Positions 5,884 to 63,178 of a stretch of DNA of 64,000 nt are shown here, in pieces (position 1 is the stretch's first letter; every line of letters starts with the position of its first letter). Below the pieces are notes generated by a model. It saw only the letters and a list, made by a program, of their open reading frames with translations, searched no databases and was not told the origin of the DNA. Position numbers and translations under genes: made by a program. Location: IMG/VR virus record IMGVR_UViG_3300028591_000082; one strand, 5' to 3'. The DNA comes from a virus. Its lineage: Duplodnaviria > Caudoviricetes.

Positions 5884-5939
5884 AGAAATTCTCCTATATT
5901 AAAAATAACATAGTCTAACTTAAATGTCAAGATAAATTT

Positions 5940-6185
5940 GTGAAAACTATACTAAAAAAGAAATTAGACAATCTCGATGTTTACTTAAACAAAGGAAACA
6001 CAATTGTTTTAGGTGAGGAATATTTTTTTTCTGGAAAGTTTTATAAAACTGAAGATGGTGGGTTACAATTAGATAACTGCCTCAATAATGAATTAAGTGA
6101 GGCAGTTAAATATTTGAGTAAGAAGGGAATAAATATTGAAATAATATCTGGACCGCCGTTAAGATATATTTTTGTTAAAAGCTGA
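5940..6185 (+). CDS. Hypothetical protein
   Basis: GTG start 4 nt after AAGATAA motif. Confidence 0.55.
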   Translation: MKTILKKKLDNLDVYLNKGNTIVLGEEYFFSGKFYKTEDGGLQLDNCLNNELSEAVKYLSKKGINIEIISGPPLRYIFVKS

Positions 6186-7164
6186 TTTTATCTATCCAAG
6201 ACTTATCAAACTTTGTAGGTTTATACAAAGTACATTCTTTTTTTAATATAAAATTTTTACCAGTTTTAACCTTAAGCTCATTTAAATCTTTTATTGTGTT
6301 TGGTAAATCATATAAATATATTGGTTTGTCATAACCATACATTATAAGTTTTGATATATTATTCTTTAATGTCCTGGCACCAGTTTCATCATTATCTCTT
6401 GCATATATAATATAACTAGGTTTCTTTTTTACAATTTTCTCTATTTGTTTTACTCCAAGATCACCAGAGCACATACAAGTTGCTGCTTGTTCATCCATAC
6501 TCATAGCATCAAATACTCCCTCACAAATTATGAGTTCGTCATTTATATCATCTATATTAAACACATATTCTTTTGTATCAATCCCAGTTGGATTTATATA
6601 TCTGAATTTTGCGTCTTTCTCTAAGCTCCTGGCTTGGAAATATACAAACTCTCCATTTTCAAAATATGGTATTATTACTCTTTTATCATATCTTGAATCA
6701 TCATTAAATACATACATCATTTTATCTATATATCTATCTGATATTTTTCTTTTCTCAAGATAACCTCTAACGATATTACAAAACGTTCCTTTATTACCAG
6801 CTATTTTCTGAGGCTTATCTTCTTTCAAAAATGTTTCTATAACATTTCCTTTTGGTTTACTTTCTTCTATTACTTTTTTTTGAGTTGCACTTCCATAATT
6901 TAAAATTATATATTCAATAACTGCTCTTGTTGAATCTATATTTAGATATTCTTTTATAAATTTTATAACAGAACCAGAACTCTCATCAAGACCAGAAACT
7001 TTATAATCACAATATACACCTTTATCAAGGTTTATATAACAATGATATTTTGAGTCTTGTTTAAATATTGAATTGATTCTTATTTCTTTTGGGTCAGATG
7101 TTCTCTTTATAGTAAACTCTGACTCAAAAAAATTTAAGAGAAGTTCTGCTGGTATTTTATACAC
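6175..7164 (-). CDS. DNA primase (T4 gp61-like, TOPRIM)
   Basis: RVIIPYF, FQARSL, ICEGVFDAMS, DND motifs. Confidence 0.88.
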   Translation of the reverse strand: MYKIPAELLLNFFESEFTIKRTSDPKEIRINSIFKQDSKYHCYINLDKGVYCDYKVSGLDESSGSVIKFIKEYLNIDSTRAVIEYIILNYGSATQKKVIEESKPKGNVIETFLKEDKPQKIAGNKGTFCNIVRGYLEKRKISDRYIDKMMYVFNDDSRYDKRVIIPYFENGEFVYFQARSLEKDAKFRYINPTGIDTKEYVFNIDDINDELIICEGVFDAMSMDEQAATCMCSGDLGVKQIEKIVKKKPSYIIYARDNDETGARTLKNNISKLIMYGYDKPIYLYDLPNTIKDLNELKVKTGKNFILKKECTLYKPTKFDKSWIDKISF

Positions 7165-7173
7165 TTTTTACCT

Positions 7174-7605: not shown

Positions 7606-7761
7606 ATTTATTTTATTCCTCTTTCGCTATACTTGCAACTTCATTTTGATAATCATTATCATATTTACTAAGAAGCGAGTACATTTTTGAAAGTAATTCA
7701 ATTATTATTTTTTGATTACTTATCAGTTCATCCATTTTAATTGATATTAGCTCATCTCCCA

Positions 7762-10386: not shown

Positions 10387-10395
10387 TATTATTCC

Positions 10396-11485: not shown

Positions 11486-11491
11486 AAAAAT

Positions 11492-11520
11492 ATTATAATA
11501 CTTATTTTTTTAAATGTCAA
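11492..11520 (-). promoter_or_regulatory. Consensus sigma70 promoter, leaderless
   Basis: TTGACA-17-TATAAT ending 6 nt before ATG 11485. Confidence 0.8.
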
Positions 11521-11964: not shown

Positions 11965-12378
11965 TTAACTTACTTGCTCTAAGTATACTTTCACGTTTCT
12001 TAGATTGTTATAGTTATATCCTACTTTATCAAGCAATAATTTCTTTTCTAATGCATCTTCTACAAAGTGGTCTTTCTCGCGTTTTCGTATAGTGTTTGGT
12101 CTTACTTTTAATATTGCTCCAACTACGGCAACTTTATTTTCTACTGTAACGTCATTTATTATAACAAGTCTATCTTCTTCTTCATCATTATCATCTATTA
12201 TGATTTCAACACCTTGTGATCTCTCACCAGGTGTTTTATCAAAATCAAAATCATCAAAATTAAAATAAACTTCTTCGTTAGTATCCGTTAAACAGTATAC
12301 TCTTCCGTTTTCCTTTCTGATTGGCATTACGAGTCTATTTGAATCTTTTAAATCTGACCATTCATTATACTTAAACAT
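11965..12378 (-). CDS. Hypothetical protein
   Basis: 137 aa ORF, AAGATAA motif upstream at 12390-12396. Confidence 0.6.
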   Translation of the reverse strand: MFKYNEWSDLKDSNRLVMPIRKENGRVYCLTDTNEEVYFNFDDFDFDKTPGERSQGVEIIIDDNDEEEDRLVIINDVTVENKVAVVGAILKVRPNTIRKREKDHFVEDALEKKLLLDKVGYNYNNLRNVKVYLEQVS

Positions 12379-12395
12379 GGGCTATAAATTTATCT

Positions 12396-15300
12396 TTAAT
12401 TCTGAATATACTTTCCAAGAGAAACAACAAATCTCTTTATTTTTTCTCCATCTTTTATCCATCTTTTGCTTCCAAACTTTATTGAACCATCATCATCTGC
12501 ATATAAAGAAAGAAGATACAAATCATCACCACGCCATCTTTCTCTACAGAACTGATAATATGAAGCAAATATAGGTATTCTATAACTCTCTCCATTTATA
12601 TCAGATATTTCACAGAATGCCATATCATTTCCATTTTTGTCTTTCTTAAACATAAAGTTCTTTGCATAAACTGGACACATTGCATTTGGAAGATTTCTTT
12701 CTTTTACTTCCTGCATACTTCTTAAGCATAAGCCTCTTTCATAAAGTTTTTGTATTTTATCTCCAATTGCTGAGAAAATATTATGAAAGAAATTTCCACC
12801 AAGATAATTTTTTTCATATTCCATATATTGTTCATTAGATGTATCTTCATCAAGAACATCTTCTTCACAATCTTCCCATAACTGAATTAAAAGTTCTGGA
12901 GTTTTCTTTGTCTTTTTCTTTTCGTAAAATTGTGTACAAAGTTTATCATATCTGCTTCTTTTTGTTCCAATTATTTCATCAAAAGCACCAGAACATATAA
13001 GAGCATTTGTAATTCTCTTTGTATATCCTTCTGTTTCTATATTTTTAATAATACAGTCTATTACAGATTCGTATGGTCTATTTTCAATAATTCCATCAAT
13101 AGGCTTTTCTCCAATTCCTTTAACCTCATTTAATCCAAATCTGATTGTATCTTCAGATATAGGTGTAAAATGAGCATCAGATTCGTTTACATCTGGTGGA
13201 AGAATTTTAAATCCATTCTTTTGGGCATTATTTATAGAGTCTTTAAGAGCATCATTCTTTGTAGCATCATATGTAAGAGATGCAGCCCAGAAATACTGTC
13301 TAAAATATCTAGACATATACAAAGTCTCACAAGCAACATATGTATATGCAGATGCATGAGATTTATTGAAAGAATATGCAGAAAGAGTAATTAAATCTGC
13401 AGTAAGTTCATCTACTTCTCTTGTTGTAAGCTTATCTTGTGCCTCATCTTTAATTGTTTTTACAAGTTTGTTCCAAGCATCAAGATCTTCTTGTTTTTTA
13501 TTTGCTTTACCAAGCTTTTTCAAAAGACCACGAGCATAATTACCAGATACTTTACCATTCGAGAGATATTCTACAAGACGCATAATTTCCTCTTGGAATA
13601 AAATACATCCGTGAGAATCTTTTAAGAACTTTGAAACTTCTTCTGGGTATTTAGAACCACCAACTCCATTTCTTACAAAATCATCAAATGAGAATGAGCT
13701 TCCTGGTCTAGACAAAGCATTAAGGCAAGTAAGTTCATCAAAATTCTTTGGTAATGCTCTTTGAATCATTCCAGATGCAGTTCCTCCAGAAAACTGGAAT
13801 ATGTTATCTTGAGATTCATTTACTTGCTGATAAAGTTGCTTATCATTATAGTCCATTCCACAATATAAGAAATTTTTCAAATCTTGTTTTGATACATTTA
13901 CTTCTATTGTTTCTGCCGCACATTTTTCTGCGTAGCTTTCTGGAACTATTTTTATAATTCCATCCTCATCTTTTACTTTAATTATATCTTCTTTTACAAG
14001 ATCTATAGCATTACTTATTACTTCAAGTACAGTAATTGCAAGACAGTCTACTTTAATAATTCCAAGTTCATCAAGCTCTGTAGCAGAACCAGATTCTACA
14101 AACGCAGAAGCTATACCATCTTTTGTGTGAATTACTGGTACATATTCCCATACTGGATTATCCAAAATAAGTACACCACCAGCATGCTGACCAAGTTGTC
14201 TTATCTGTCCCATAATCTTTGGAGTAAAATCAAGATATGCCTTGTATTGAGAATATATTCTGTAAAGATTTGGGAAATTATTTCTGTAATTCTCCATGTT
14301 TTCTTCAAACGACATTTCATCATTTAATTCTTTACAGAAATTATTACTATCAGCAAATGGAACTTCGCATTTTCTTAAAATATCTTTTATTGCAGAAGCA
14401 AGACCAACAGTACCATATGTACCAACGCCCATAACTCTTTCCTGACCATATTTTTCAATAAGCCATTGTTTGAGTTCTTCTTTGGCTGCTGGTTCGTAGT
14501 CAGAGTCAATATCCAATCCCCCACTACCACCTTGTTTAATTTGAGCTATTTCAAGTGGTTTTTCCAAATCAACTTTATCTGTTCTACCAAGAAAGAATGG
14601 AAGTACATATCTATCATCACATTCTACTTCCATAATTTCATCATATACAGACATTTCATTTTCAAGCCATTTAGCACGTCTAAGTTCCTTAATGGCTCTG
14701 TCTTTATATTGAGGATATTCTTTGATTTTTTCTATTACTATTTTCTTAAGATCTTCAAAAGAATAATTTCTATTTTTTGTTATATACCAATCTCCAACAT
14801 AATACTTATAAGTATTAGAAACGAGACGATCATCTGATACAAAACGTTCAAAAAGAAGACCAAGCTTAAGAGGATCTAGTGCCCAAGAGGCAATACCAAG
14901 ACACAATGCTGTAAGACATCCTCCACAAGAACCTCTTGATGGACCAACCATAAACTTCTTTTCTCGTGCATGATTTACAAATGATGCTACTGTAAGCATA
15001 TATCTGTATGCACCTTTCTTTAAAAGAACTTCAAGTTCATGTTCGAGTCTTTCTTTATATTCTTTTGGACAATTGTCATATTCACAATTAAAGTGTTTTG
15101 CAAGACCTTCTTTTGCAAGTCTTACAAAATCCTCTTCTTCGTCAAATGAGTATCTTGGAAGTTTCATTCCAGTTCCAAGAGGAATTGTAAAATTACATTT
15201 TTTAGCAATCTTATCTGAATTTGCACACCATTGTTCTATCTGTTCATCAGTATATCCATAATTCCATTGCTTGTTGAACTGCTTAAAATCTTCTACACCC

Positions 15301-16037
15301 TGATAAAATAATGACTTACATTTGTAAGTATCATCACCTTCTGAATCATCTTCTTTTCTAAGATTAAAAATAAATCTTTGTGTTGCTGCACCTTCAGGTG
15401 TTGCATAATGTATATCACCAGTTAATATAACTGGAACATTATATTTTTCAGCAACTTTTATAATCCAATCGTTATATTTTTTTTGCTCATCTCTTAATTC
15501 ATTTAATTGTACTTCTGCATAAAAATTCTCGCCAAATTTATCATAGAATTTCTTAAAATATTCTTCTGCTTTTTCTTCATTTCCGCCAAGAACATACTGA
15601 GAGAATATAGAAGCAAGACAAGCTGTTCCAACTATAATACCTTTTGAGTGTTCAAAAAGTTCATCGAATGTAATTCTTGGTTTATAGTAAAAATGAATAT
15701 CATCTGAATTGGCTATATATGAAAGTTTACAAAGATTCTTCCAACCATATTCATTTGATGCGAGTAATATTATATGAGTATTTTTTGTTCTTATTCTCTT
15801 TTTACCGTCTGTAGTTACAAGTTCTTCTACAAGATAAGATTCATTTCCAAGAATTGGTTTTATTCCATTTGCAATTGCATATTGCTGGAATCTAAACAAA
15901 TCTCCCATTGAATCAAGCCCATGATTTGTTATCGCTAATGCTTTATGACCATGTGCAACTGCTTGATCTACAAGTTCTTGTACTGATGAAACTCCATCAT
16001 AACGAGAATAATTCGAGTGAGTATGAAGATGTACCAA
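12396..16037 (-). CDS. dnaE: DNA polymerase III alpha subunit (family C)
   Basis: PHP HLHTHS, RGS, FERF, DIDSD, HAGGV, IKVDCL, YSFNKSHA, PPDVNES, IRFGLNEVKGIG. Confidence 0.95.
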   Translation of the reverse strand: MVHLHTHSNYSRYDGVSSVQELVDQAVAHGHKALAITNHGLDSMGDLFRFQQYAIANGIKPILGNESYLVEELVTTDGKKRIRTKNTHIILLASNEYGWKNLCKLSYIANSDDIHFYYKPRITFDELFEHSKGIIVGTACLASIFSQYVLGGNEEKAEEYFKKFYDKFGENFYAEVQLNELRDEQKKYNDWIIKVAEKYNVPVILTGDIHYATPEGAATQRFIFNLRKEDDSEGDDTYKCKSLFYQGVEDFKQFNKQWNYGYTDEQIEQWCANSDKIAKKCNFTIPLGTGMKLPRYSFDEEEDFVRLAKEGLAKHFNCEYDNCPKEYKERLEHELEVLLKKGAYRYMLTVASFVNHAREKKFMVGPSRGSCGGCLTALCLGIASWALDPLKLGLLFERFVSDDRLVSNTYKYYVGDWYITKNRNYSFEDLKKIVIEKIKEYPQYKDRAIKELRRAKWLENEMSVYDEIMEVECDDRYVLPFFLGRTDKVDLEKPLEIAQIKQGGSGGLDIDSDYEPAAKEELKQWLIEKYGQERVMGVGTYGTVGLASAIKDILRKCEVPFADSNNFCKELNDEMSFEENMENYRNNFPNLYRIYSQYKAYLDFTPKIMGQIRQLGQHAGGVLILDNPVWEYVPVIHTKDGIASAFVESGSATELDELGIIKVDCLAITVLEVISNAIDLVKEDIIKVKDEDGIIKIVPESYAEKCAAETIEVNVSKQDLKNFLYCGMDYNDKQLYQQVNESQDNIFQFSGGTASGMIQRALPKNFDELTCLNALSRPGSSFSFDDFVRNGVGGSKYPEEVSKFLKDSHGCILFQEEIMRLVEYLSNGKVSGNYARGLLKKLGKANKKQEDLDAWNKLVKTIKDEAQDKLTTREVDELTADLITLSAYSFNKSHASAYTYVACETLYMSRYFRQYFWAASLTYDATKNDALKDSINNAQKNGFKILPPDVNESDAHFTPISEDTIRFGLNEVKGIGEKPIDGIIENRPYESVIDCIIKNIETEGYTKRITNALICSGAFDEIIGTKRSRYDKLCTQFYEKKKTKKTPELLIQLWEDCEEDVLDEDTSNEQYMEYEKNYLGGNFFHNIFSAIGDKIQKLYERGLCLRSMQEVKERNLPNAMCPVYAKNFMFKKDKNGNDMAFCEISDINGESYRIPIFASYYQFCRERWRGDDLYLLSLYADDDGSIKFGSKRWIKDGEKIKRFVVSLGKYIQN

Positions 16038-16492: not shown

Positions 16493-16560
16493 AAAAATTC
16501 TCCTTACTTTTTCTACAATTTTATTATATCATGAGGCAATATAAAAATCAAGTTAATCAT

Positions 16561-16920
16561 ATGATAGATAAGAAAAAAATAAATACTCTCACATTAAGAA
16601 GATTCAATGAAATGTATCACAACGAAAATGTAAAATTTGGTGGTTGGGATAAATATCATATTCCAAGTGAAAAAAAATATTTCTTATCTTTGTATTGCCC
16701 ATTTGCTAATTTTAAAGATCCATTTGGTGTTTATTGGCATTCTGGAAAATTTCATGTACCAAAATATAAAGACCTTTCTTATAGACAGTCATCAAGACTT
16801 GAAGATATATGCAATTCTTTAAATTCAAATCAAAGTTTGATAAGAGCTTGCAGAGAAGTAGATAGACTTATAGATTTAAAAGCTACAAGAGCATTTACTG
16901 GAAAATATTTTAATTATTAA
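16561..16920 (+). CDS. Hypothetical protein
   Basis: Within ORF 16531..16920; start assigned at 16561 (AAGTTAA-4nt-ATG). Confidence 0.55.
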   Translation: MIDKKKINTLTLRRFNEMYHNENVKFGGWDKYHIPSEKKYFLSLYCPFANFKDPFGVYWHSGKFHVPKYKDLSYRQSSRLEDICNSLNSNQSLIRACREVDRLIDLKATRAFTGKYFNY

Positions 16921-18366: not shown

Positions 18367-18466
18367 TTTTACTCCCTTACTTCGTCTTTTTCATTTTTTC
18401 TTCTTTAAATTAACTTATTAAAGCTAAATAATAAGGAGGCCACCTCTTCTATGGTGGTAGTTAATA

Positions 18467-23231: not shown

Positions 23232-23307
23232 TCAAATTACTTTGATTTTATTTTAACTTTGTTTTTGATATATAAAAAATTATAACAAATTATTTTTAAA
23301 AGTAAAT

Positions 23308-23354: not shown

Positions 23355-24473
23355 TTAAAGAGAAAGAATTGCAATACTCTCTTTAATTGCTCCAACATCT
23401 GTTTCATTATTCTTTGAGCTTGATTCAATTGCTGTAAGAAGAGCATTTATTTTTGAAACAAGTTTTTCATCTTCAATCTTGTCAGCTGCTGTTTCAAGTG
23501 CTTTCTTAAGCTTTTCTACGTCACTATCTTTAGCTGCAAGCTTTTCATCTTCTTTTTTCTCTTTATCGTCTTCACCTTCGAAATCGTCATCGCTCAAAGC
23601 TTCTTCGATAATAGATTTCTTGTCTGAAAGATATTCACTTTCTTCGATAATTTTATTAATTTCATCTGCAAGTTCTTTTCTTTCTGCAACAAGTTTTGGT
23701 TCTCCAAGAACACTCATTCCAACAAATTCTTTGAATTCGCTTTCATTAAGACCCATAATCATTTCATTATTTCCAACATAGTCTTCAATAACTGTAGGAT
23801 CTTCTGTTTCTTTATATACCTTGATTGCTTCAAGAAGTGCCTTCTTTGCTTCTGAATCTTTTGAGAATTTTGCAACTTTATCTGAAATATCAGAATAAAT
23901 TACTCTTTCTTCATCTTCATCAAGAACTGCTACTTTTACTGGGTGTACAAAATCAATATAGTGAATTGTAGAAACTGGTCTTTCTTCAAGAAGTGCAGAA
24001 TATTCTTCAAAAAGTGATGTTTCTTTAAGTTCATCAAGTTCTTCATTAATTCCGCAAAGTGGTGAATAATCAATTACATCACTAATATTCTTTGAAGCAA
24101 GTGCTTCAACTATTGAATCTTGAAGTTCATTATCATCTTTTTCGAATTCTTCAGAAAGAGCTTCGCCAATTCTTTCTGTATCAACTACTTCTTCATTAAA
24201 GTAATCACTAACTGCTTCTCTAAGTGAATTTGTTTCCTTCTCTAATTCAATATTTTCAAAATTTTCAAAAACAAAAGTATTGCCATCAAAACTGTAATCA
24301 GCAGTATAAATATTACCATTTGTATGGTCTGCAAGCAACACTTTATCCTCAAACATTTCCATAAGAACGGCGTTTGAGCTTTCATTTATAATTTTTCTTG
24401 CAAGCTTTTCAACCATTCTATTGCTATGTGCTATAGTATCTGATAATTTGCTAATTGTCATAGTAATCTCCAT
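23355..24473 (-). CDS. Acidic prohead core/scaffold-like protein
   Basis: Very acidic and helical, many I/L-x-E sites, downstream of portal, late motif at 24482-24488; true start may be 24461. Confidence 0.5.
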   Translation of the reverse strand: MEITMTISKLSDTIAHSNRMVEKLARKIINESSNAVLMEMFEDKVLLADHTNGNIYTADYSFDGNTFVFENFENIELEKETNSLREAVSDYFNEEVVDTERIGEALSEEFEKDDNELQDSIVEALASKNISDVIDYSPLCGINEELDELKETSLFEEYSALLEERPVSTIHYIDFVHPVKVAVLDEDEERVIYSDISDKVAKFSKDSEAKKALLEAIKVYKETEDPTVIEDYVGNNEMIMGLNESEFKEFVGMSVLGEPKLVAERKELADEINKIIEESEYLSDKKSIIEEALSDDDFEGEDDKEKKEDEKLAAKDSDVEKLKKALETAADKIEDEKLVSKINALLTAIESSSKNNETDVGAIKESIAILSL

Positions 24474-24496
24474 TTATACTTTTAACTTTGTCGTTT

Positions 24497-24907
24497 TTAT
24501 AGTTTATATATAGTTCTAGACAATTCAAGACTTCTGCGCTTAATTACGTTAAATTCTTTTTTAAGTATTTGAATTTTATCTATAACAAATGGGTTACTAT
24601 ATTCATCTTTTAACGATATATTTCTTACATAGACTTTATTTTTTTCTATTTTTTCAACAACAAGGACATCCCCTCTTGTGATATCCTTAAATACTTTTAA
24701 TAAAGGTGATTTTTCTTTTATAAGAATCTTTTTCCATTGTTGACTAGAAGCACTAGGAACAGTCATTCTTATTCCATCAATAATATAATTATTTTTTTTC
24801 AAAACAAATTGGGTTTTGTAAGTCTCAAGCATATCACCTGGACTTACAATTTCAATTTCATTATTAATTTTTTTTAATATGTCATTAATGGTTTTTTCAT
24901 ATTTCAT
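24497..24907 (-). CDS. Hypothetical protein
   Basis: ATGA overlap with portal stop. Confidence 0.6.
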   Translation of the reverse strand: MKYEKTINDILKKINNEIEIVSPGDMLETYKTQFVLKKNNYIIDGIRMTVPSASSQQWKKILIKEKSPLLKVFKDITRGDVLVVEKIEKNKVYVRNISLKDEYSNPFVIDKIQILKKEFNVIKRRSLELSRTIYKL

Positions 24908-26907: not shown

Positions 26908-26942
26908 TAAAAAATCTCCAGGTCTACTATGTTAACTTTTTT

Positions 26943-27425: not shown

Positions 27426-27464
27426 AATAAAAAATTTTAAACATTGTTTAAAAAAAGTCAAGTA

Positions 27465-27860: not shown

Positions 27861-27925
27861 ATTTATATTATACTATACACTAATATTTAAATCAAGTTAA
27901 ATAAGGAAACGAGCAGAAAAAAAGT

Positions 27926-30219: not shown

Positions 30220-31148
30220 ACTTTTAACTTAGTTCTTATAGTTTGTGCTATTTCTCTTATTTCTGTCTGAGCATGTGGGTCATCTCTAAGAGCTATAAAT
30301 TTTTTCCAATCATTTGTAGTACCAGTTACAACAATAATTGTAGCTGCAGCATTTGGAAGTACCTCTCTAGCATCTTCTGGTTTAAGCCCATCATCTATAA
30401 GATCGAAATATTCAAGTTCTGCATGTTCAAAAGCATTTTTAAAAATATTTTCAATTGATTCATCATCTGCTGCGGGGGTCTTTTTATTACACTTAAATTT
30501 TGGCATAATAAAATTTATTGAGTGATCAAATTTATCATTAGAGAAATTACAGTATCTTTGACTCTGTTGTGAAAACGATAATGAACGATGACGTACTATT
30601 TGATGACTTGTTGAACGATTACAAACAATATTAAATGTTTTACTATCATGAAGCTCTTTTATACCTTCTGGTATATCTTCTTCTTTTATGTATTCAGCAC
30701 ATACTGGATAATTCAATGTAGCACCTTCTACATTATATGTAGTTTTAAGATCCCTTGTAAATATATATGGATATAATTCTTTAAGAATTGTATATGTTCC
30801 ATTATCATAATATATTTCTGGAGCATTTGTTGCATCCAACCAACCCCTTATATTTGATGAAACATATATAATTCCTTCTTCTCCTTGAGAAATATTAAAA
30901 AATTTCATATGATCTCTTTGAGAAATTGTTGCAAATGGGTCTCCTTTTCTAAGATCATATTTTATACATACTCTTTCGTGTTCTAGAACAGAACAGTGAC
31001 CACTTTTAACAACATTAGATATAAACTTTATGTATGAAGTATCATTTATGTTAGAATCACTTTTATAACATGTTCTACCAGCAATCTCTATTTTTTTACC
31101 AGGTGTTTTATTAATTATTTCTTCTACACTACTTTCTATTATATTCAT
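30216..31148 (-). CDS. thyX: FAD-dependent thymidylate synthase
   Basis: GHCSVLEH, RSTSHQIVRHRSLSFSQQSQRY, AREVLP, HAQTEIR; start reassigned to 31148. Confidence 0.92.
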   Translation of the reverse strand: MNIIESSVEEIINKTPGKKIEIAGRTCYKSDSNINDTSYIKFISNVVKSGHCSVLEHERVCIKYDLRKGDPFATISQRDHMKFFNISQGEEGIIYVSSNIRGWLDATNAPEIYYDNGTYTILKELYPYIFTRDLKTTYNVEGATLNYPVCAEYIKEEDIPEGIKELHDSKTFNIVCNRSTSHQIVRHRSLSFSQQSQRYCNFSNDKFDHSINFIMPKFKCNKKTPAADDESIENIFKNAFEHAELEYFDLIDDGLKPEDAREVLPNAAATIIVVTGTTNDWKKFIALRDDPHAQTEIREIAQTIRTKLKV

Positions 31149-31207
31149 AAAAATAATTATATTATTATGATATTTACAAGTCAAGTTAAAAATAAAAAGG
31201 AGTTGAA

Positions 31208-33679: not shown

Positions 33680-34456
33680 TTATCTTCTTGTAGGAATTAA
33701 CTGCTGAAACTCAGAACGATATTCTGATATTTCTTCTATAAATTTTTTATAATCTGTTGTTTTATATCCATATGCCCTAAAGGCACAGAATAAATCATTT
33801 TTTCCAACTATATTTTTATTTTTTACAAGATATTCCATAAGAATAGAAGTAAGTTCTATATACTTTTTTCTTTTTTCTCTTATATAATGTTCATCTATTA
33901 TTTTAAGAAATGTAGATTCAAGATCTTCAAAAAATAAATTATAATTTGTTTCTTGCTTCTGTTCTACATCTGGACATATATCAATATCTGCCGTAAGTCT
34001 ATGTTTTTTCATTTTTAATGTGTAATTAAGTAAATCCATTTTACACAAAATTGAAAAAAGATTAAATGCGGTTCCTCTTCCAGGAACATATTTTGGTAAA
34101 TATTTCCAGCAAGCAGAAAGTCCTTCTGCTTCCAAGTCTTCTACAGAATCAAATCTCCAATACATATATTTATTTATAATTGCTCTAACTATAAGTAATA
34201 ATGATTGAAGTATTTCTTCTTCTGCCTCAACATCTCTTGAAATTATTTTTCCATCTTTATCATATTTTAATGAAGGTTGATAAACATCAACTATTAAATG
34301 TTTTATTCTTTCTTCATCAAAGTAAATATTCTGTTTTTTATTTTTAAAATTAAAATTATTATGATTTTTATTTTCTAGTTCTTCTAGTTCTTCTAATTCT
34401 TTCTTATCGTCAGAATTAAGCATGTATTCGTATATTTCTTCTTCTTTTTCATCCAT
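33680..34456 (-). CDS. Late-transcription sigma factor (T4 gp55-like)
   Basis: YFDEE, DLEAEGLSACWKYLPKYVP..GTAFNLFSILCK region-2-like pattern; no region 4 evident. Confidence 0.7.
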   Translation of the reverse strand: MDEKEEEIYEYMLNSDDKKELEELEELENKNHNNFNFKNKKQNIYFDEERIKHLIVDVYQPSLKYDKDGKIISRDVEAEEEILQSLLLIVRAIINKYMYWRFDSVEDLEAEGLSACWKYLPKYVPGRGTAFNLFSILCKMDLLNYTLKMKKHRLTADIDICPDVEQKQETNYNLFFEDLESTFLKIIDEHYIREKRKKYIELTSILMEYLVKNKNIVGKNDLFCAFRAYGYKTTDYKKFIEEISEYRSEFQQLIPTRR

Positions 34457-34471
34457 AAAGAATATTTAACA

Positions 34472-34753
34472 TCATGCTTTTATTTTGTCAAGTATTTTGT
34501 AGTCATCTATATTAAGGGATTTTGTTTTCCATATTTCTTCAAGCCAATTATGAAATTCTTTTCTTGCTAATTGTTTTTGTATTGAGGTAATTCTGTTTGA
34601 ACTATGAGGGAAAAAGAAGCATTTTGCTCTTTTTATTTCATCTTCATTATTATAAAAGACAAGCTGCCACATATCATTGGTAGTTGAATATAATATTACA
34701 GTACCAATGGAAGTTTTTTTAGATTTAGCTATTTTAACTCCATTTAAACACAT
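34472..34753 (-). CDS. Hypothetical protein
   Basis: AAGCTAA motif 6 nt upstream. Confidence 0.5.
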   Translation of the reverse strand: MCLNGVKIAKSKKTSIGTVILYSTTNDMWQLVFYNNEDEIKRAKCFFFPHSSNRITSIQKQLARKEFHNWLEEIWKTKSLNIDDYKILDKIKA

Positions 34754-34772
34754 TCAAAATTAGCTTATATGT

Positions 34773-37140: not shown

Positions 37141-37181
37141 TTAACTTTAATACAAAGTTTTGATTTTGTCAAGTTAAAAAT

Positions 37182-40398: not shown

Positions 40399-40412
40399 AA
40401 AAGATAAAATAT

Positions 40413-41400: not shown

Positions 41401-41423
41401 GCCACTCTTTGAGTGGCTTTTTT
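41401..41423 (+). terminator. Intrinsic terminator
   Basis: GCCACTC-TTT-GAGTGGC-TTTTTT. Confidence 0.8.
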
Positions 41424-41529
41424 ATTGACCATTTTTAAAATTGTGTTATTATTACGCTACTAATGTGGTAGTTTTACTGAAAAAACTGCTTAATGACACT
41501 AGCAAAGTTAATCACCCACGGAGTTAAGA

Positions 41530-44107: not shown

Positions 44108-44184
44108 TATCAGAAAAAAAGATTGTTTAAAATAGCCATAAAGTTTCTCCAATACAAGTTAAAAATAAGAAATGGAGAAATTTT

Positions 44185-44751
44185 ATGGCTATAAAACTTT
44201 CAGATAGTAAATCTTTTAAACTAGAACCGATTAGAAAAAATAGGTGGGTCTTCCAATTTTCTGCAATTCCAGGAAATGATGATAAGCAGAGTGAAGCTTT
44301 AGCTTTTGTATGTAAGACTTGTAATGCTCCAGAAATTTCATTTAATGCAACAACTGCAAACCGTATGAATGAAAAATTCAAGTATGCTGGTCTTCCAGAA
44401 TGGAATCAGATTTCTTGTACATTCTATGATTATATAAGAAATGCTACTGGTGGAGCTGGAGAACTTTCTGCTGGTGATATTCTTTATAACTGGTCTTGTA
44501 TGATTTATAATCCACTTACTGGACAGATGGGATACAAAACACAGTATGCAACTTCTGCAACACTTGCTCAGCTTGATCCAGCTGGTAACGTTGTAAGAGC
44601 TTGGAATATTTTTGGTATCTTCCCAACAAAAGTTAGTTTTGGTAACGGTCTTTCTGCAACAGATGGTGAAATCTGTGAAATTGAAGCAACATTTGATTAT
44701 GATCTTGCTATCAAAATTACAGATGCTAAGACTGCAACTGAATCGGCATAA
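44185..44751 (+). CDS. Tail tube protein (T4 gp19-like)
   Basis: EPIRKNRW, P.ISF, KYAGLPEW..I.CTFYD, QLDPAGNVVRAW...GIFPT, F.YD. Confidence 0.85.
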   Translation: MAIKLSDSKSFKLEPIRKNRWVFQFSAIPGNDDKQSEALAFVCKTCNAPEISFNATTANRMNEKFKYAGLPEWNQISCTFYDYIRNATGGAGELSAGDILYNWSCMIYNPLTGQMGYKTQYATSATLAQLDPAGNVVRAWNIFGIFPTKVSFGNGLSATDGEICEIEATFDYDLAIKITDAKTATESA

Positions 44752-44773: not shown

Positions 44774-44798
44774 AGGCTGCCTAATGGCAGCCTTTTTT
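44774..44798 (+). terminator. Intrinsic terminator
   Basis: AGGCTGCC-TAAT-GGCAGCCT-TTTTT. Confidence 0.85.
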
Positions 44799-44829
44799 AT
44801 TTTCTAAGATAATTTTAAAGGAAAAAGAA

Positions 44830-48054: not shown

Positions 48055-48073
48055 AAGTTAAAATTGAGGCTTT

Positions 48074-51034: not shown

Positions 51035-51058
51035 GTATAAATAAATTAAGATAATATT

Positions 51059-55433: not shown

Positions 55434-56066
55434 TTAGAATACTGCGTCTATTACATCTTTAAGGGATTTATTTGTATTAACTTCTTCTTTTACAACTTTT
55501 TCTTCGTAAACTGTATCAGAAACAGCTTCTTGACAAGAAGGAGTACCTACAACATCAATGGAAATAATTTTACATGGTCCAACTACTTCTTTAATGTCTT
55601 CTGTTAAAGGAATACCAAGTTCTGCTTTTGTCTGCTCTGACATTGGTTTTGTTTTTCCAGTCATTCTTGTAGAGAAACAAATCTTAAAACCAGATTTTGC
55701 AAGACCTTCTACAACTTTCCCAGCTTCTGTAAGCGTTGGAACTGCTTTACCACTGATTATACCAGTGTCTTCATCCCATTTGAATTCTGGGAATGTTACA
55801 GCAATTCTTTCAAGATTTACATGAGCATCTTTTGCATGTTCAAGTTCTCCAAAAATTGGTTGACCAGTTTTTTTACTTCTTCCAACTGCTTCATTATATG
55901 TTTCTCTTAAAAGACTTTTTCTATAAACTCTTTTGTTTCCATTTACTTTATCAGCTTCGGATAAAATACCCTTAAACGCAATACGCTTTTGTCCTTCTCC
56001 GATTTCTTCTTCTACGATTTCTACTTCGCTATTTTCAACGAATTCTTCAGTTAGCAATTCTTCCAT
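55434..56066 (-). CDS. Prohead protease (T4 gp21-like)
   Basis: GILSEAD..NGNKRVY, GELEH, FSTR..G, DVVGTPS. Confidence 0.9.
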   Translation of the reverse strand: MEELLTEEFVENSEVEIVEEEIGEGQKRIAFKGILSEADKVNGNKRVYRKSLLRETYNEAVGRSKKTGQPIFGELEHAKDAHVNLERIAVTFPEFKWDEDTGIISGKAVPTLTEAGKVVEGLAKSGFKICFSTRMTGKTKPMSEQTKAELGIPLTEDIKEVVGPCKIISIDVVGTPSCQEAVSDTVYEEKVVKEEVNTNKSLKDVIDAVF

Positions 56067-56080: not shown

Positions 56081-56695
56081 TTAACTTTTTTCAGTTATTA
56101 CTAGCATTCTTTTTTTGTTACATTTTCTAAAATCATCAAAACTAAATGTTTCTAAATTTCCTCCATTTTTGTTTCTAGGATTTTTACCCCAAGGGTCATA
56201 GTATACAAAACCTTTATCATTAATATCAACAATTGTTATATAATGTCCAGTAGTTTTTTCATCTTCATATGATAAAACTATTGCAGAATTTGAGCTCTTG
56301 ATTATAGTTTTAGCCATAGTTTCAAGCTCTCTTTGAGTATCTGTATAGAATGTTCTTGCTGTAACATGTGCTATTTTTTCTGCTGCATATCTTAAATTCT
56401 CAAGATATTCATTTTCGCACATTCCATCTCCATGTTCTGGCATATCTTTTTCATTCTGATATATATAACAGAATAATAAATCTGCCTGAGACATAACATT
56501 TTTACCTTCAATTTGCGGAAGTTTTACATAAAACTTGTTATTTACTGCTTCAATTGCGCAGCAAACAGCATTTACATTGCAAGTTTCAAGGTGAAAATTT
56601 ACCTGTTTTTGAACTCTTAAATCATAAAGAAATTTCTCTATAATTCTGTTTGTTTGTTCATATCTAATATTTTCGTTCTTATATTTAGCCGCCAT
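56081..56695 (-). CDS. C39-like cysteine peptidase
   Basis: Q......TCNVNA (Cys), GHYITI (His), YYDPWG (Asp). Confidence 0.7.
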   Translation of the reverse strand: MAAKYKNENIRYEQTNRIIEKFLYDLRVQKQVNFHLETCNVNAVCCAIEAVNNKFYVKLPQIEGKNVMSQADLLFCYIYQNEKDMPEHGDGMCENEYLENLRYAAEKIAHVTARTFYTDTQRELETMAKTIIKSSNSAIVLSYEDEKTTGHYITIVDINDKGFVYYDPWGKNPRNKNGGNLETFSFDDFRKCNKKRMLVITEKS

Positions 56696-56744
56696 ATAAT
56701 TAGCTTAATTAATGGAAAAAGTTAAAATTATAATGGAGATAGAT

Positions 56745-57233
56745 ATGACTCTAAGACAATTACTTGATAACATTCAGTATGGCGAAGAATACATGAAAAA
56801 GGAAGCAAACAAGAAGGCAATACTTGAAAATTATGATGAAGAAATAGATATGCTTAAAGCATCTTCAAGAATTAGAAGTATTGCTAGAAACACGGTTCTC
56901 GAAGAGGATGTAGCGAAAAAAGTTGAAAGACTTTGCGTTAAGCTTGAATCTTTTGAAGAAAAAATAAATGATAATAAAGAAATTTCTCCAGCTTATAAGA
57001 AGATGCAGTGTTCTGCAATTATGGAAAGCTGTAATGATCTTATTAAAGAAATAGATGGCTATAAGAGAAATTCAGATGTTCAAAAGAAAGAAGGTATTGC
57101 TAAAATTGTAGCAGATGCAAATTTCTTTGTTAAAAATTATATTGATTCACAGGCAGTAATGAATGAATCTAAGAATCCTCTTTTTGCCTCATATATTAAT
57201 GAAGAAAAGAAACAACTCGAAGAATATCTTTAA
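56745..57233 (+). CDS. Putative head-internal protein
   Basis: Start reassigned to MTLRQLLD (GGAG SD, AAGTTAA at 56719-56725); ILE/VLEE/INEE sites. Confidence 0.55.
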   Translation: MTLRQLLDNIQYGEEYMKKEANKKAILENYDEEIDMLKASSRIRSIARNTVLEEDVAKKVERLCVKLESFEEKINDNKEISPAYKKMQCSAIMESCNDLIKEIDGYKRNSDVQKKEGIAKIVADANFFVKNYIDSQAVMNESKNPLFASYINEEKKQLEEYL

Positions 57234-59491: not shown

Positions 59492-59494
59492 GTT

Positions 59495-60325: not shown

Positions 60326-60331
60326 TATAGA

Positions 60332-60430
60332 TTAATATTTGCTGTAACAATTATATATACAAATTTGGTATGCATCTACGCAAGATATATTACATCCAAC
60401 ACATTTATTATCACAAGTTGCGCATCCATA
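60332..60430 (-). pseudogene. Orphan inverted Cys-repeat fragment
   Basis: Minus frame YGCATCDNKCVGCNISCVDAYQICIYNCYSKY-stop with no in-frame ATG. Confidence 0.6.
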
Positions 60431-60442
60431 TAAGATAATTAT

Positions 60443-60859
60443 GTGATAACAGTTGGCAAAACACAAGACAGAATTGGTAATGAAAATAATAGTTCTCTTA
60501 TATTTTTAGGTAATACTAATAATACAACATTTTTAAAGGAAGATGGCGGTCAAGCTTTTTTTGATGAAAATAATATAAGTGATACGATTATTGCTAAAGG
60601 AAAGGTTACAAAAACCACAAATTCTGGCTTTATAAATGACAAAAAATTTTATACTTGTAATGCAAATGCTCAAACTTATTTATGTTTTAGATGCGTTGAT
60701 GAATGTGTGAGTTGTAATAGTTGTTTAAATTGTAATGGATGTCACACCAAATGTAATTCTTGCCAAGGATGTGATGATACATGTTATGGCTGTAATTTAT
60801 GCAATAGTTGTAATGGATGCAATAGTTGTAATTCATATTGGAATGGAGCTGGAAGATGA
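60443..60859 (+). CDS. Cys-repeat protein 1 (putative rSAM substrate)
   Basis: ~70 aa Cys-free N-terminus then ~17 Cys mostly in Cx2C/Cx3C spacing; AAGATAA-4nt-GTG. Confidence 0.75.
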   Translation: MITVGKTQDRIGNENNSSLIFLGNTNNTTFLKEDGGQAFFDENNISDTIIAKGKVTKTTNSGFINDKKFYTCNANAQTYLCFRCVDECVSCNSCLNCNGCHTKCNSCQGCDDTCYGCNLCNSCNGCNSCNSYWNGAGR

Positions 60860-61710
60860 TTATATTATCAAATAAACTAAAATTTAACGACAGTAATACA
60901 GTAACTCATAAAAAAATATTAGTTGGGACTAATACAATTAAATTTGAAAGAGATAATGGTGTTACAGAAATATTAAGAATTGATAATAATGATGATATTT
61001 ATTATAATAATAGTAAACTTTATTATGACTGTAATAATTGCGTAGGTTGTACTAAATGTAATAGTTGTACTACTTGCGATAGTTGTCATGGTTGCATTAG
61101 TGATTGTAGAAATTGTAATGTATGTTATAATAAATGTAATGGCTGTTATAATAATTGCAATGGCTGTAATGGCGGTTGTAATAATTGTCAAAATAGTTGT
61201 AATACATGTACTAGCTGTAATAGATGCACTTCTTGTACTAGTTGTACTAGCTGTAATGGTGGTTGTACCTCTGGATATGGATGTGGCAATTGCGATGATT
61301 CTTGCCAATCATGTACTGGTTGTACAAGTGTTAGAACATATTGTATGGGATGCGTAAGCGGATGTAATAGTTGCACTAGTTGTGCTGGCTGCAACAATGG
61401 TTCTTATTGTCCAAGTAGCTATACTTGTAGTGGAAGTTGTGTAAATACATGTAATGGATGTAATGATGGTTGTACTAGTGGTTGTACAACCGGTTGTACA
61501 TCATGTAATGGTTGTAATAGTAGTTGCCAGAACAGCTGTACTGGATGTCGTGGTTGCGTAAGTGCTTGTACTACAAACTGTACTGGTTGCGATAGTAGAT
61601 GTAATGGTAGTTGCAATGGTTGTACTGGATGTACTTCATGTAATAATTGTGTTAGTACTTGCAATGGATGCAATACTTCGTGTTGGGGACCATGCTGGTT
61701 AAATCATTAG
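60856..61710 (+). CDS. Cys-repeat protein 2 (putative rSAM substrate)
   Basis: ~57 aa Cys-free N-terminus then ~63 Cys (manual count) in Cx2C/Cx3C repeats rich in N/T/S/G; ATGA-coupled start at 60856 with GGAG SD. Confidence 0.8.
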   Translation: MIILSNKLKFNDSNTVTHKKILVGTNTIKFERDNGVTEILRIDNNDDIYYNNSKLYYDCNNCVGCTKCNSCTTCDSCHGCISDCRNCNVCYNKCNGCYNNCNGCNGGCNNCQNSCNTCTSCNRCTSCTSCTSCNGGCTSGYGCGNCDDSCQSCTGCTSVRTYCMGCVSGCNSCTSCAGCNNGSYCPSSYTCSGSCVNTCNGCNDGCTSGCTTGCTSCNGCNSSCQNSCTGCRGCVSACTTNCTGCDSRCNGSCNGCTGCTSCNNCVSTCNGCNTSCWGPCWLNH

Positions 61711-61756
61711 TAATATATAGACGTTATTATATGTAATTATCTAAAAAGTTAATGAT

Positions 61757-63178
61757 ATGACACTCAGAGAAATAGTAGATAATACATTAGATGATCAATA
61801 TATAATTAATGAAGGCTTTATTACTTGTCCTGCTATTTTTTATTATGCATTTTCAAAACCAATAGGGTCACTTAAGGTAAGTGCTGAAAAAATAAAAGCA
61901 AAAGCTGGTATTAAATCAGGAAAAGGCGAAAATGCTACTATATATAAGCTATCAAAAGAGCAAAAAGATTTTCTTAAAGAAATAAGAGCTAAATATGGTT
62001 CTAGTATAGAAAATCTTATAAAGACATTTAGAATAAAAATAGCGGCACCTTATCAAATAGCAAGAAGAGCATCTGCAGATTATAGCAAATCAACATCTCT
62101 TACAAGATATGGAATGACAAAAGATGAGTATATGCGTGCTTATGAAAGCGGAAGAAACAAAATTTTAAGAATGAATAAAAAAGATGAAGCTTTCAATAGT
62201 AGCAAACTTGATTTTGAAAACAAAAAAAATGCTCTTAACGAATTAAGAAAAACAATAAATAATTTTGAATCTGGTTCAAATCTTGTAATAAATTCAAATA
62301 TGATAGAAAAACTTCTCTCAACAAAAGGTCTTGACAGAGAATCATTCAACTGGTCTATGGCAGATCTTGAATCTGCATACAACAAAATAAAAAAATATAA
62401 AGAAATACTTAATAATCCAGATCCAAAAAGAGATGAAGAAGGAAATGAAGTATTCTACGATTATAGAGGTGGAAGAAGAATTCCAAGAACAAGAAAATAT
62501 ATCACAGAATATATAGAAGACATTAAAAAATATGGATATGCTGGAACAAAACTTCAAGAACGTACAAGAGAAAGAGAAGCTGCTCTAAAAAAATCTGGAA
62601 ACTGGGAAGAAGCATTTAATAGATATATGCTTAGAAAAGAAATAATTAAAGATTTCGAAAAGAATTTCTCAAGAAATGAATATATATCTGTTTATAAAAA
62701 GATTTTGCAGGACGAACTTAGAAAAGCAGAACAGAATTTTGATGAATCTAAAAATACATTTATGAATGTACTTCCAAGACATACTCTTAATGATAAAGAA
62801 AAAAAGATTTGGAAGCTTAAATCAACTGGAGTTATAAATTCTGGCGATATTAATGATTGGTATCTTGCAATAAAGCCAGAAGATTTTGGAACAAAAACAG
62901 TTAAGAAACCAAGAGAAATAGAAAGAGCAGAATATGAAATAAAAGCTGCTACAAAAAATTTTGAATCAGAACTTTCTAAAATTCTTGATGAAGAAGAAAT
63001 GGCAAAACTTAAAGAACTTAGACTTATAGATAATTTTATAAGTGTAAAAGTAAGTAAAGAAGACAATTTTGAAAAAGATGTTCTTTCTAGAAAAGAAAAG
63101 AAAGAAGGTGAAGAAGAAGAAAATAAGGACAAAAAAACAGGAGAAGAAAATGATTCTAAGCGAAACACTGATGAATAA
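61757..63178 (+). CDS. Putative head-internal/ejected helical protein
   Basis: MTLREIVD...IINEG N-terminus; AAGTTAA-4nt-ATG. Confidence 0.6.
   Translation: MTLREIVDNTLDDQYIINEGFITCPAIFYYAFSKPIGSLKVSAEKIKAKAGIKSGKGENATIYKLSKEQKDFLKEIRAKYGSSIENLIKTFRIKIAAPYQIARRASADYSKSTSLTRYGMTKDEYMRAYESGRNKILRMNKKDEAFNSSKLDFENKKNALNELRKTINNFESGSNLVINSNMIEKLLSTKGLDRESFNWSMADLESAYNKIKKYKEILNNPDPKRDEEGNEVFYDYRGGRRIPRTRKYITEYIEDIKKYGYAGTKLQERTREREAALKKSGNWEEAFNRYMLRKEIIKDFEKNFSRNEYISVYKKILQDELRKAEQNFDESKNTFMNVLPRHTLNDKEKKIWKLKSTGVINSGDINDWYLAIKPEDFGTKTVKKPREIERAEYEIKAATKNFESELSKILDEEEMAKLKELRLIDNFISVKVSKEDNFEKDVLSRKEKKEGEEEENKDKKTGEENDSKRNTDE

Follow-up and report, generated by a model that had tools for sequence, protein, structure and literature searches.

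A fixed-spacing AAG[T/A/C]TAA box, very probably the late promoter of an uncultured clade of T4-like giant phages

Boxes and promoters in the window

The window, the whole 64,000-nt stretch of DNA that was analysed, carries 28 boxes of the form AAG[T/A/C]TAA that are co-oriented with the gene downstream. Twelve of the 28 (43%) lie 4-6 nt before a start codon lacking an SD site:

5929..5935, plus strand: AAGATAA, 4 nt 5' of GTG 5940 (81 aa), in a divergent intergenic region
11965..11971, minus strand: AAGTTAA, 4 nt 5' of ATG 11960 (147 aa); the gene upstream ends on the TAA of this box
16550..16556, plus strand: AAGTTAA, 4 nt 5' of ATG 16561 (119 aa), in a divergent region
30224..30230, minus strand: AAGTTAA, 4 nt 5' of ATG 30219 (128 aa); kept in related locus L010
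33680..33686, minus strand: AAGATAA, 4 nt 5' of ATG 33675 (73 aa); kept in L009 and L010
37171..37177, plus strand: AAGTTAA, 4 nt 5' of ATG 37182 (131 aa), in a divergent region
51048..51054, plus strand: AAGATAA, 4 nt 5' of ATG 51059 (902 aa), in a virion gene block
56700..56706, minus strand: AAGCTAA, 4 nt 5' of ATG 56695 (204 aa), upstream of the prohead protease gene
60432..60438, plus strand: AAGATAA, 4 nt 5' of GTG 60443 (138 aa, Cys-rich)
61746..61752, plus strand: AAGTTAA, 4 nt 5' of ATG 61757 (473 aa)
40401..40407, plus strand: AAGATAA, 5 nt 5' of ATG 40413 (326 aa), no SD
34760..34766, minus strand: AAGCTAA, 6 nt 5' of ATG 34753 (93 aa), no SD

A sequence-only reading had reported the ten starts at 4 nt, with a T before the start codon and no SD, and the spacers of 5 nt (40413+) and 6 nt (34753-); all of these hold, and the T stands directly 5' of the start codon in 10/10 spacer-4 sites. 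The TAA of the box at 33680..33686 (-) is the stop codon of the candidate sigma gene described below. The box at 56700..56706 (-) shares its divergent region with the plus-strand box at 56719, and that at 37171..37177 (+) is kept in L010 although the flanks vary. At the sites orthologous to ATG 34753 in L009, L010 and L011, AAGTTAA is found at identical spacing. Two of the ten fixed-spacing genes start with GTG, a codon at which E. coli initiates leaderless messages poorly; for the product of GTG 60443, the N-termini of homologues align from residue 1.

The other 16 boxes lie further from the start, at variable distances upstream of SD sites, and an SD is visible at 14 of them:

26932..26938, minus strand: AAGTTAA, then SD GGAG, then the portal gene (24904-26907)
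27894..27900, plus strand: AAGTTAA, then SD, then the large terminase gene (27926-29836); placed back to back with a -35 box of the minus strand
31183..31189, plus strand: AAGTTAA, then AGGAG, then ATG 31208 (244 aa); kept in L010
32993..32999, minus strand: AAGTTAA, then GAGG, then ATG 32975 (298 aa); kept in L010
38587..38593, plus strand: AAGTTAA, then AAGGAG, then ATG 38616 (216 aa, polynucleotide-kinase-like)
41505..41511, plus strand: AAGTTAA, then GGAG, then the NrdD gene (41530-43854)
44156..44162, plus strand: AAGTTAA, then GGAG, then the tail tube gene (44185-44751)
44806..44812, plus strand: AAGATAA, 12 nt past an intrinsic terminator (44774-44793), then SD, then a 1074-aa gene
48055..48061, plus strand: AAGTTAA, then GAGG, then ATG 48074 (986 aa)
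56081..56087, minus strand: AAGTTAA, whose TAA is the upstream stop codon, then SD, then the prohead protease gene (55434-56066)
56719..56725, plus strand: AAGTTAA, then GGAG, then ATG 56745, the preferred start for the 56712-57233 ORF
24482..24488, minus strand: AAGTTAA, then GGAG, then ATG 24461 (about 368 aa); adjoins the portal module
18410..18416, minus strand: AAGTTAA, 43 nt 5' of ATG 18366 (320 aa, SD-led)
23253..23259, minus strand: AAGTTAA, 120 nt 5' of the gp32-like SSB gene, downstream of a terminator (23334-23313)
12390..12396, minus strand: AAGATAA, 11 nt 5' of ATG 12378 (137 aa), no SD; a weaker candidate
37141..37147, minus strand: AAGTTAA, overlapping the -10 (TAAAGT) of a host-type promoter, 76 nt 5' of ATG 37064

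Every upstream box listed earlier with an SD is present, and six are new (41505+ at NrdD, 24482-, 18410-, 23253-, 12390- and 37141-). The NrdD box follows a terminator (41401-41417) and a host-type promoter (41425-41452), and the NrdD orthologue in L005 likewise carries a box. PHROGs bear out the portal, terminase, tail tube and prohead protease labels of the sequence-only reading; its 'hub' (44830) and 'tape measure' (48074) find no family support. With an SD called at an anti-SD duplex dG <= -5, SD sites are absent from all 12 close-spaced genes and present at 11 of the 13 genes with a box further upstream.

A second class of promoters, of host type, also ends at start codons:

34457..34491, minus strand: TTGACA-N17-TAAATA-N6, ending at the ATG of the candidate sigma gene; predicted leaderless
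27861..27895, minus strand: TTGATT-N17-TATAAT-N6, ending at ATG 27860 (131 aa, no SD)
11486..11520, minus strand: TTGACA-N17-TATAAT-N6, ending at ATG 11485 (73 aa, no SD)
5736..5769, minus strand: TTGACA-N16-TAAAAT-N6, ending at ATG 5735 (169 aa, methyltransferase-like, no SD)
31149..31184, minus strand: TTGACT-N17-TATAAT-N7, ending at ATG 31148, the likely true start of a thymidylate-synthase-like gene

Spacing, context and conservation of the box

As anticipated, the heptamer itself is not the evidence: it is not enriched window-wide, with 64 copies against 98 expected. Its placement, rather than its overall frequency, is its distinctive feature. The pattern AAGHTAANNNTRTG has 10 matches in the 64,000-nt window, all opening an ORF without an SD site, against 0.66 expected and a maximum of 3 in 100 shuffles. 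When spacers of 0-12 nt from the box to any ATG/GTG were scanned, only spacer 4 was enriched (10 vs 2.5), which bears out the proposed positional enrichment. For AAGTTAA, 16 of 25 copies lie <=40 nt 5' of a co-oriented start, compared to a mean of 6% within 40 nt upstream for the 105 7-mers of the same composition. Two pairs of fixed-spacing genes are alike over their first 10 residues but are not paralogues, and the ten sites are thus independent.

Substitution is tolerated at box position 4 only; single changes at positions 1-3 and 5-7 were not found upstream of genes. The base 5 nt 3' of the box is a purine in 26/28 window sites and the base before it a T in 20/28, SD-led genes included in both counts. 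The purine recurs in 85% of 79 SD-led sites of the clade, where, however, the purine-rich SD tract in part confounds the preference. Columns upstream of the box hold no information, either in the 28 window sites or in 45 + 79 clade sites. No -35 element is conserved, and the box stands alone in the -10 region, a placement inferred from the predicted start site.

The surroundings of the boxes support a promoter element and not a ribosome site. The short divergent regions at 5929, 16550, 37171 and 56700 must each hold a promoter, and for the plus-strand gene no promoter-like signal other than the box was found there; boxes also sit past the terminators at 44774-44793, 41401-41417 and 23334-23313, as they also do in L003. 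Numbered from the A of ATG (+1), the phage box has its invariant A at -11 and its invariant T at -7. TTGACA-N17-TATAAT-type promoters exactly 6 nt 5' of four SD-less ATGs have the same T(-7) register. The number of host-type promoters 6 nt before an ATG (5 vs 2.1 expected) is not significant by itself. A motif working on RNA, be it a processing site at which cleavage leaves leaderless or short-leader mRNAs, a repressor site close to the start codon (cf. T4 RegA) or a non-SD ribosome-binding signal, would also show the fixed distance to the start codon and the strict strand orientation. We nevertheless give it a very small probability: in half of the copies an ordinary SD site intervenes and the start is 11-25 nt away, others occur right behind terminators or in divergent regions, into which no transcript is expected to run, and the genome's host-type -10 boxes have the same A(-11)/T(-7) register. 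Moreover, the box is not complementary to the anti-SD sequence.

On a further alternative, the box is a promoter mainly serving genes further downstream, and the close-spaced genes are translated from longer, read-through messages through coupling or reinitiation. The gene arrangement bears on this: an upstream gene directly abuts six of the 12 close-spaced genes, which could therefore be served in this way. At three boxes (11965, 33680, 56081) the TAA doubles as the stop codon of the preceding gene, and 30219 overlaps its upstream gene as ATGA. However, four close-spaced genes stand first in divergent regions and have no gene before them, two lie after gaps of 46-117 nt, and coupling would not require exactly 4 nt ending in T. 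The geometry is also retained in orthologues that have a different gene, or a terminator, on their upstream side. We regard coupling as improbable.

The box and its spacing recur throughout the clade: across 30 related metagenomic loci totalling 266 kb, spacer 4 is seen 44 times against 10.3 expected, and 36 of these 44 sites open an ORF of at least 50 aa. The arrangement box + N3 + T + ATG is kept before orthologous 178-aa genes, and before orthologues of the gene after the candidate sigma, although the flanks diverge in both. In relatives with 80-86% identity, box and spacing are retained at all seven alignable sites, at one of which AAGCTAA has become AAGTTAA with the spacing constant.

A candidate sigma factor

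The minus-strand gene that ends at the box of ATG 33675 encodes a candidate reader:

33680..34456, minus strand: candidate late sigma, 258 aa, with a sigma region-2 fold at residues 45-156

The product has an acidic disordered N-terminus and a helical C-terminal domain at 172-251. Its N-terminal domain superposes on T4 gp55 (7d7d_F) with Z 11.7 and an rmsd of 2.3 A over 95 residues, the best structural match, tied with the sigma-2 domain of SigB. Over residues 45-150 the fold matches many sigma-2 domains, at Z 8-11.7 and an rmsd of 1.8-3 A, and sigma factors predominate in the Foldseek lists. Pfam Sigma70_r2 is weakly matched by 7/22 homologues (best E 0.012), and no other Pfam family recurs in more than two of the 22. 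By fold, the protein carries a region 2 domain of the sigma-70 family. The sequence-only reading had called it a sigma and set it beside gp55-type sigmas; the region-2 fold upholds the sigma part, but its sequence does not match gp55 significantly (hhalign against T4 gp55: E 0.05, probability 1%). The candidate gave no tblastn match in phage records and no significant match to PDB sequences, nor to Pfam or PHROGs at default cut-offs. The C-terminal domain modelled alone (pLDDT 80.6) reaches at best Z 6.3, where sigma C-terminal domains (3mzy, 9m7y_F, 6ono_B, 6pmj_F) tie with unrelated helical domains; there was no Pfam region-4 match.

That this protein reads the box, as was also proposed, is supported by circumstantial evidence: the family co-occurs with the box down to 40% protein identity (L006, L007). 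We consider the 33680-34456 product most likely to be the sigma that reads AAG[T/A/C]TAA. In the window and in relatives alike, host-type promoters precede the sigma gene, as expected of a middle gene switching on late genes. Both observations speak against a real promoter with another reader, either a host alternative sigma or another phage factor with its gene outside the window, which we consider unlikely. Such a reader would be compatible with a link that consists of co-occurrence only, with a candidate that has no family match at a significant sequence level, and with the presence of sigma-28 among its structural matches (Z 8.0). The -10 element of sigma-28, GCCGATAA, also shares GATAA with the AAGATAA variant, whereas the dominant AAGTTAA lacks the CGA core of sigma-28 boxes and there is no conserved -35 TAAA. 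The sigma-28 (FliA) consensus combines -10 GCCGATAA and -35 TAAA, 15 nt apart. Identity of the box with a sigma-28 promoter was rejected, with no CG before the box and no conserved upstream element.

Proposed mechanism and comparison with known systems

We propose that AAG[T/A/C]TAA very probably serves an uncultured clade of T4-like giant phages as late promoter, and put at about 70% the reading of a single-box late promoter used by a phage sigma with the host core polymerase, with part of the transcripts leaderless. Host core RNA polymerase with the phage sigma, most likely the 33680-34456 product, would read the box, while the sigma gene itself would be served by its host-type promoter. Transcription would begin at the purine 5 nt past the box, as judged from the geometry. 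At 16/28 boxes this start site would fall upstream of an SD-led gene. At the other 12 (4 nt, rarely 5-6 nt), the distance from box to start codon implies that the mRNA would begin at or <=2 nt from the A/GUG, and such leaderless messages would have to be translated without an SD site. The earlier estimate that about half of the late transcripts are leaderless is a fair one, given that 12/28 boxes lie 4-6 nt before an SD-less start. Late timing is suggested by gene content; since the box also precedes non-structural genes (NrdD, the kinase-like gene and the SSB gene), 'late' may really mean 'middle plus late'.

T4 late promoters consist of a single box about one helical turn upstream, followed by an AT-rich stretch, with no -35; gp55 recognises them together with gp33 and the gp45 clamp (PMC2988020). 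The T4-type box is TATAAATA (T4 consensus from PMC3184105), or NATAAATA-like in cyanophages. The present phage is T4-like by its portal, UvsX, gp32-like SSB, prohead protease and terminase. It shares with T4 the single -10-region box with an AT-rich stretch after it and no -35, the scattering of boxes before virion genes, and a small, divergent sigma that matches gp55 in its region-2 domain (Z 11.7). In contrast, its box AAGNTAA, with an invariant G, is unrelated to TATAAATA, and its 258-aa sigma carries a further helical domain at the C-terminus and an acidic tail at the N-terminus, without significant sequence similarity to gp55. No gp33 or gp45 homologues were recognised by PHROGs/Pfam among the ORFs of the 64 kb window, the small genes around the sigma included, the genome being much larger. 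While T4 late mRNAs are, as far as is known, SD-led, about 43% of the boxes here abut a start codon.

In Thermus phage P23-45, a phage-specific late -10 element gives mostly leaderless transcripts. The same holds for the Thermus phages Lalka27a and YS40 (bioRxiv 10.64898/2026.04.20.719267). The likeness lies in a distinct late -10 box without a normal -35, and, as predicted here, in the initiator-codon A or G at the 5' end of many transcripts and in early/middle host-type promoters that also give leaderless mRNAs. The Thermus phages differ in their box, TAGGGT, in start sites that were measured there and are deduced here from sequence, and in their Deinococcus-Thermus hosts, in which about 39% of host genes are leaderless (PMC3160421); the present phage is T4-like, with strong SD sites on most genes.

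A computational signature of leaderless genes, TANNNT about 12 nt upstream of the start codon, was described by Zheng et al. 2011 (PMC3160421). There, too, a -10-like signal stands a short and constant distance before a start that lacks an SD. The window's host-type promoters match this signature exactly (first T at -12), and the phage box shares its A(-11)/T(-7) register. Whereas that signature represents sigma-70-type boxes of cellular genomes, we find here a second, phage-specific box with the same geometry.

Position of the proposed late box relative to start codons

The heptamer AAG[T/A/C]TAA, proposed as the single -10-type late promoter (late box) of this phage, is defined by where it stands. 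The sequence-only reading had placed it 4 nt before the start codons of ten genes, and all ten sites are present as described. The fixed-spacing pattern AAGHTAANNNTRTG occurs ten times against 0.66 expected (maximum of three matches in 100 shuffles). When spacers of 0 to 12 nt were scanned, an excess was seen at 4 nt only (10 versus 2.5 expected), and a T precedes the start codon at 10/10 of these sites. The same reading had cautioned that the heptamer alone is common in AT-rich DNA and had taken the fixed spacing as the evidence. By count the heptamer is slightly under-represented overall (64 copies versus 98 expected), so the signal lies wholly in its position. Of 25 AAGTTAA copies, 16 have a co-oriented start no more than 40 nt downstream, the mean for 105 heptamers of the same composition being 6%, and the runners-up in this comparison are shifted versions of AAGTTAA. 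Single substitutions upstream of genes are confined to box position 4 (A or C), while changes at the other six positions stay at background level.

The box set compiled for analysis comprises 28 sites. Twelve are close-spaced: ten stand 4 nt before the start codon and the other two 5 and 6 nt before it. All twelve genes lack an SD site. The other 16 lie 11-120 nt upstream of the start; of the 13 at distances up to 45 nt, 11 have a good SD site between box and start. Immediately downstream of the box come four bases that are nearly all A/T. At position 5 after the box, a purine stands in 26/28 window sites, with T just before it in 20/28, the SD-led class included; in the clade of T4-like phages carrying homologues of the candidate sigma factor, purines make up 85% at this position across 79 SD-led sites, a value partly confounded by the SD tract. 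Upstream of the box, neither the window boxes nor the clade sites show any informative column, so a -35 element is lacking, and none is detectable for the C-terminal domain of the sigma.

Two other origins of the pattern were considered and rejected. Paralogy among the ten sites would leave related genes behind the box, but likeness is limited to the first ~10 residues, in two pairs. A TAA-based translational reinitiation signal would require the box to supply the upstream stop codon, which only 3/28 boxes do.

At these three places (11965-11971, 33680-33686 and 56081-56087, minus strand), the TAA of the box also terminates the preceding reading frame, so that gene end and promoter are packed very tightly. 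The two gene pairs, 11960/61757 and 30219/37182, are otherwise unrelated and have like first 6-10 residues (MTLR[QE][VI][IV]D and MKF[DE]EA, respectively), a likeness that may be accidental or may stem from selection acting on 5' ends of leaderless mRNAs.

The spacing is conserved in the clade. Loci were retrieved via the sigma homologues (7 from IMG/VR and 28 from metagenomes), and 30 non-redundant loci totalling 266 kb were scanned. Spacer 4 was counted 44 times (10.3 expected), with 36 of the 44 sites opening ORFs of at least 50 aa, and the remaining spacers do not rise above background. A seeming excess at spacer 11 (22 versus 10) is an artefact, arising from a conserved spacer-4 gene that contains an extra ATG 7 nt in. 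Among 42 unique sites, T precedes the start codon in 37 and the start is ATG in 40. The arrangement box + N3 + T + ATG is kept in orthologous 178-aa genes of four phages and, in many phages, at the gene after the sigma; in both families the N-termini align from Met1, and spacer letters and flanks vary. In relatives with 80-86% nucleotide identity, box and spacing are retained at 7/7 alignable sites, including a change from AAGCTAA to AAGTTAA at constant spacing. More distant phages also carry the box at NrdD, portal and neighbouring orthologues.

Promoter context and start-codon register

The surroundings of the box are those of a promoter. Four close-spaced genes (5940, 16561, 37182, 56695) head divergent regions without an upstream gene, and intrinsic terminators at 44774-44793, 41401-41417 and 23334-23313 each precede a box; in relatives, a terminator hairpin stands directly before box + 4 nt + ATG (locus L003). 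The box lies upstream of portal, terminase, tail tube, protease and large virion-block genes. Helicase, primase, DNA polymerase and recombinase genes are without it, the core replication genes being SD-coupled or served by TTGACA/TATAAT promoters. The NrdD gene has a host-type promoter followed by a box, an order that fits early-plus-late expression. Orientation, divergent regions, terminators and clade conservation thus sustain the initial proposal, and we consider it likely, with a probability of roughly 70%, that the box is a late-type promoter giving leaderless or near-leaderless mRNAs.

The predicted transcription start at close-spaced genes is probably the start codon itself. Numbering the A of ATG as +1 puts the box at -11 to -5 and its invariant A and T at -11 and -7, the two bases of canonical -10 elements captured by sigma region 2 (cf. 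3UGO). Four host-type promoters in the window lie exactly 6 nt before SD-less ATGs, in a T(-7) register identical to that of the late box.

Host-type promoters 6 nt before SD-less ATGs
5736-5769, minus strand: TTGACA-N16-TAAAAT, before ATG 5735
11486-11520, minus strand: TTGACA-N17-TATAAT, before ATG 11485
27861-27895, minus strand: TTGACA-like-N17-TATAAT, before ATG 27860
34457-34491, minus strand: TTGACA-N17-TAAATA, before ATG 34456 (sigma gene)

At starts 31148 and 27425 the spacer is 7 and 8 nt, respectively. By count, the host-type class is not significant (5 versus 2.1 expected), and its weight comes from the coincidence with SD-less ORF starts. These promoters match the published computational signature of leaderless genes, a -10-type box at a fixed short distance (PMC3160421), so early genes, including the sigma gene, are also predicted to be leaderless. 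In relatives, unlike the window, the sigma gene has an SD-led leader after a similar promoter.

Early and late promoters also meet in five back-to-back cassettes of identical geometry, in which a minus-strand TTGAYN -35 starts 1 nt inside a plus-strand late box. Their composite is TTANCTTGAYN, the -35 to -10 spacer is always 17 nt, and the two promoters, sharing 2 bp, may exclude each other.

Back-to-back cassettes (plus-strand late box, minus-strand -35; composite TTANCTTGAYN)
5925-5935
16546-16556
27890-27900
31179-31189
37167-37177

Promoter and SD geometry further suggests that the longest-ORF starts of five window genes are probably wrong. For the GTG start at 60443, homologue N-termini align from residue 1.

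Start codons favoured by promoter/SD geometry
30216-31241, minus strand: ORF, start 31148
26943-27461, minus strand: ORF, start 27425
56712-57233, plus strand: ORF, start 56745
23355-24473, minus strand: ORF, start 24461
16531-16920, plus strand: ORF, start 16561

A more far-reaching joint reading, which we regard as improbable, is that both promoter classes are register-locked to start codons within a two-tier, tunable translation. The T(-7) of early and late boxes would lie six bases before the A of AUG, and about a quarter of genes, GUG starts included, would be translated without leaders. SD-led mRNAs would then serve the bulk virion proteins and leaderless mRNAs a separate set, a regime that the phage could tune over time via altered host ribosomes or initiation factors.

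Candidate sigma factor and gene content

The candidate reader of the box is the putative sigma, a 258-aa product (33680-34456, minus strand), proposed from co-occurrence and plausibility. It has 74 metagenomic homologues, none annotated, and gave no significant match to Pfam, PHROG or PDB sequences and none by tblastn in phage records; a sigma-family profile gave only a chance match in PDB sequences. In the predicted model (pLDDT 76), residues 45-150 align with T4 gp55 (7d7d_F, Z 11.7, rmsd 2.3 Å), a score equalled by S. aureus SigB sigma-2; ~30 other sigma-2 domains rank next. Foldseek lists (PDB and viral models) consist mostly of sigma factors, gp55-type included, with weak E-values. Pfam Sigma70_r2 matches 7/22 homologues weakly, every other family matching at most two, and an hhalign comparison with T4 gp55 gave no significant match. 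When the C-terminal helical domain was modelled by itself, its best Z was 6.3 and no match was decisive. Both in the window and in related phages, the sigma gene has host-type promoters, an arrangement one would expect of a switch gene.

The window (64 kb, 29% G+C) belongs to an uncultured phage, and a near-identity search with its terminase gene found no near relative in phage records. T4-like core genes comprise a gp20-type portal, large terminase, tail tube, baseplate wedge protein, gp21-type prohead protease, UvsX-like recombinase and gp32-like SSB. The portal is ~30% identical to those of cyanophages, Flavobacterium phages and giant phages, and strong SD sites precede the majority of genes. 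Replication genes include a DnaB helicase and a primase, and despite the T4-like virion and recombination genes, the replicative polymerase (12396-16037, minus strand; PHP, finger and HHH domains) is DnaE-type (Pol III alpha) in place of gp43-type family B. A phage-encoded RNA polymerase was sought in the window and not found: the DnaE-type polymerase accounts for the 1213-aa ORF, and the remaining large ORFs are without polymerase domains. Two Cys-rich proteins (60443-60859 and 60838-61710, plus strand) carry many CxxC repeats, in regions varying in length among homologues, after a conserved N-terminal domain (MITVGK...FYTC...LCFRCV); relatives of the GTG-start gene at 60443 were sought in IMG/VR and none were found.

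Comparison with known late promoters

A literature search found no description of AAGTTAA as a phage promoter, the matches being primers and unrelated sequences. The work of Berdygulova et al. in 2011 on phage P23-45 reportedly provides a precedent for phage leaderless late transcription. The box offers a testable promoter consensus with predicted start sites for an entire clade of giant T4-like phages, uncultured and from gut or rumen, enabling annotation of late genes and of true start codons, several of which need moving in the window. It would broaden gp55-like late transcription by adding a box unlike TATAAATA, and would place promoter-to-start-codon fusion in systematic use outside the Thermus and actinobacterial settings familiar for leaderless expression. 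Should the pairing of sigma and box be confirmed, it would provide a compact, orthogonal module for expression.

In T4 late promoters, one 8-bp box lies roughly a helical turn upstream, followed by an AT-rich stretch, and there is no -35 (PMC2988020; PMC3184105). The architecture is alike, but the sequence differs, AAG[T/A/C]TAA bearing no resemblance to the T4-type TATAAATA. Leaderless genes account for 39% in the hosts of Thermus phages versus 3.9% in Spirochaetes (PMC3160421). In Thermus phages themselves, leaderless transcription occurs phage-wide, driven by a late -10 box specific to the phage (bioRxiv 10.64898/2026.04.20.719267); there the leaderless transcripts were measured, whereas in the present clade the start sites are predicted from sequence geometry.
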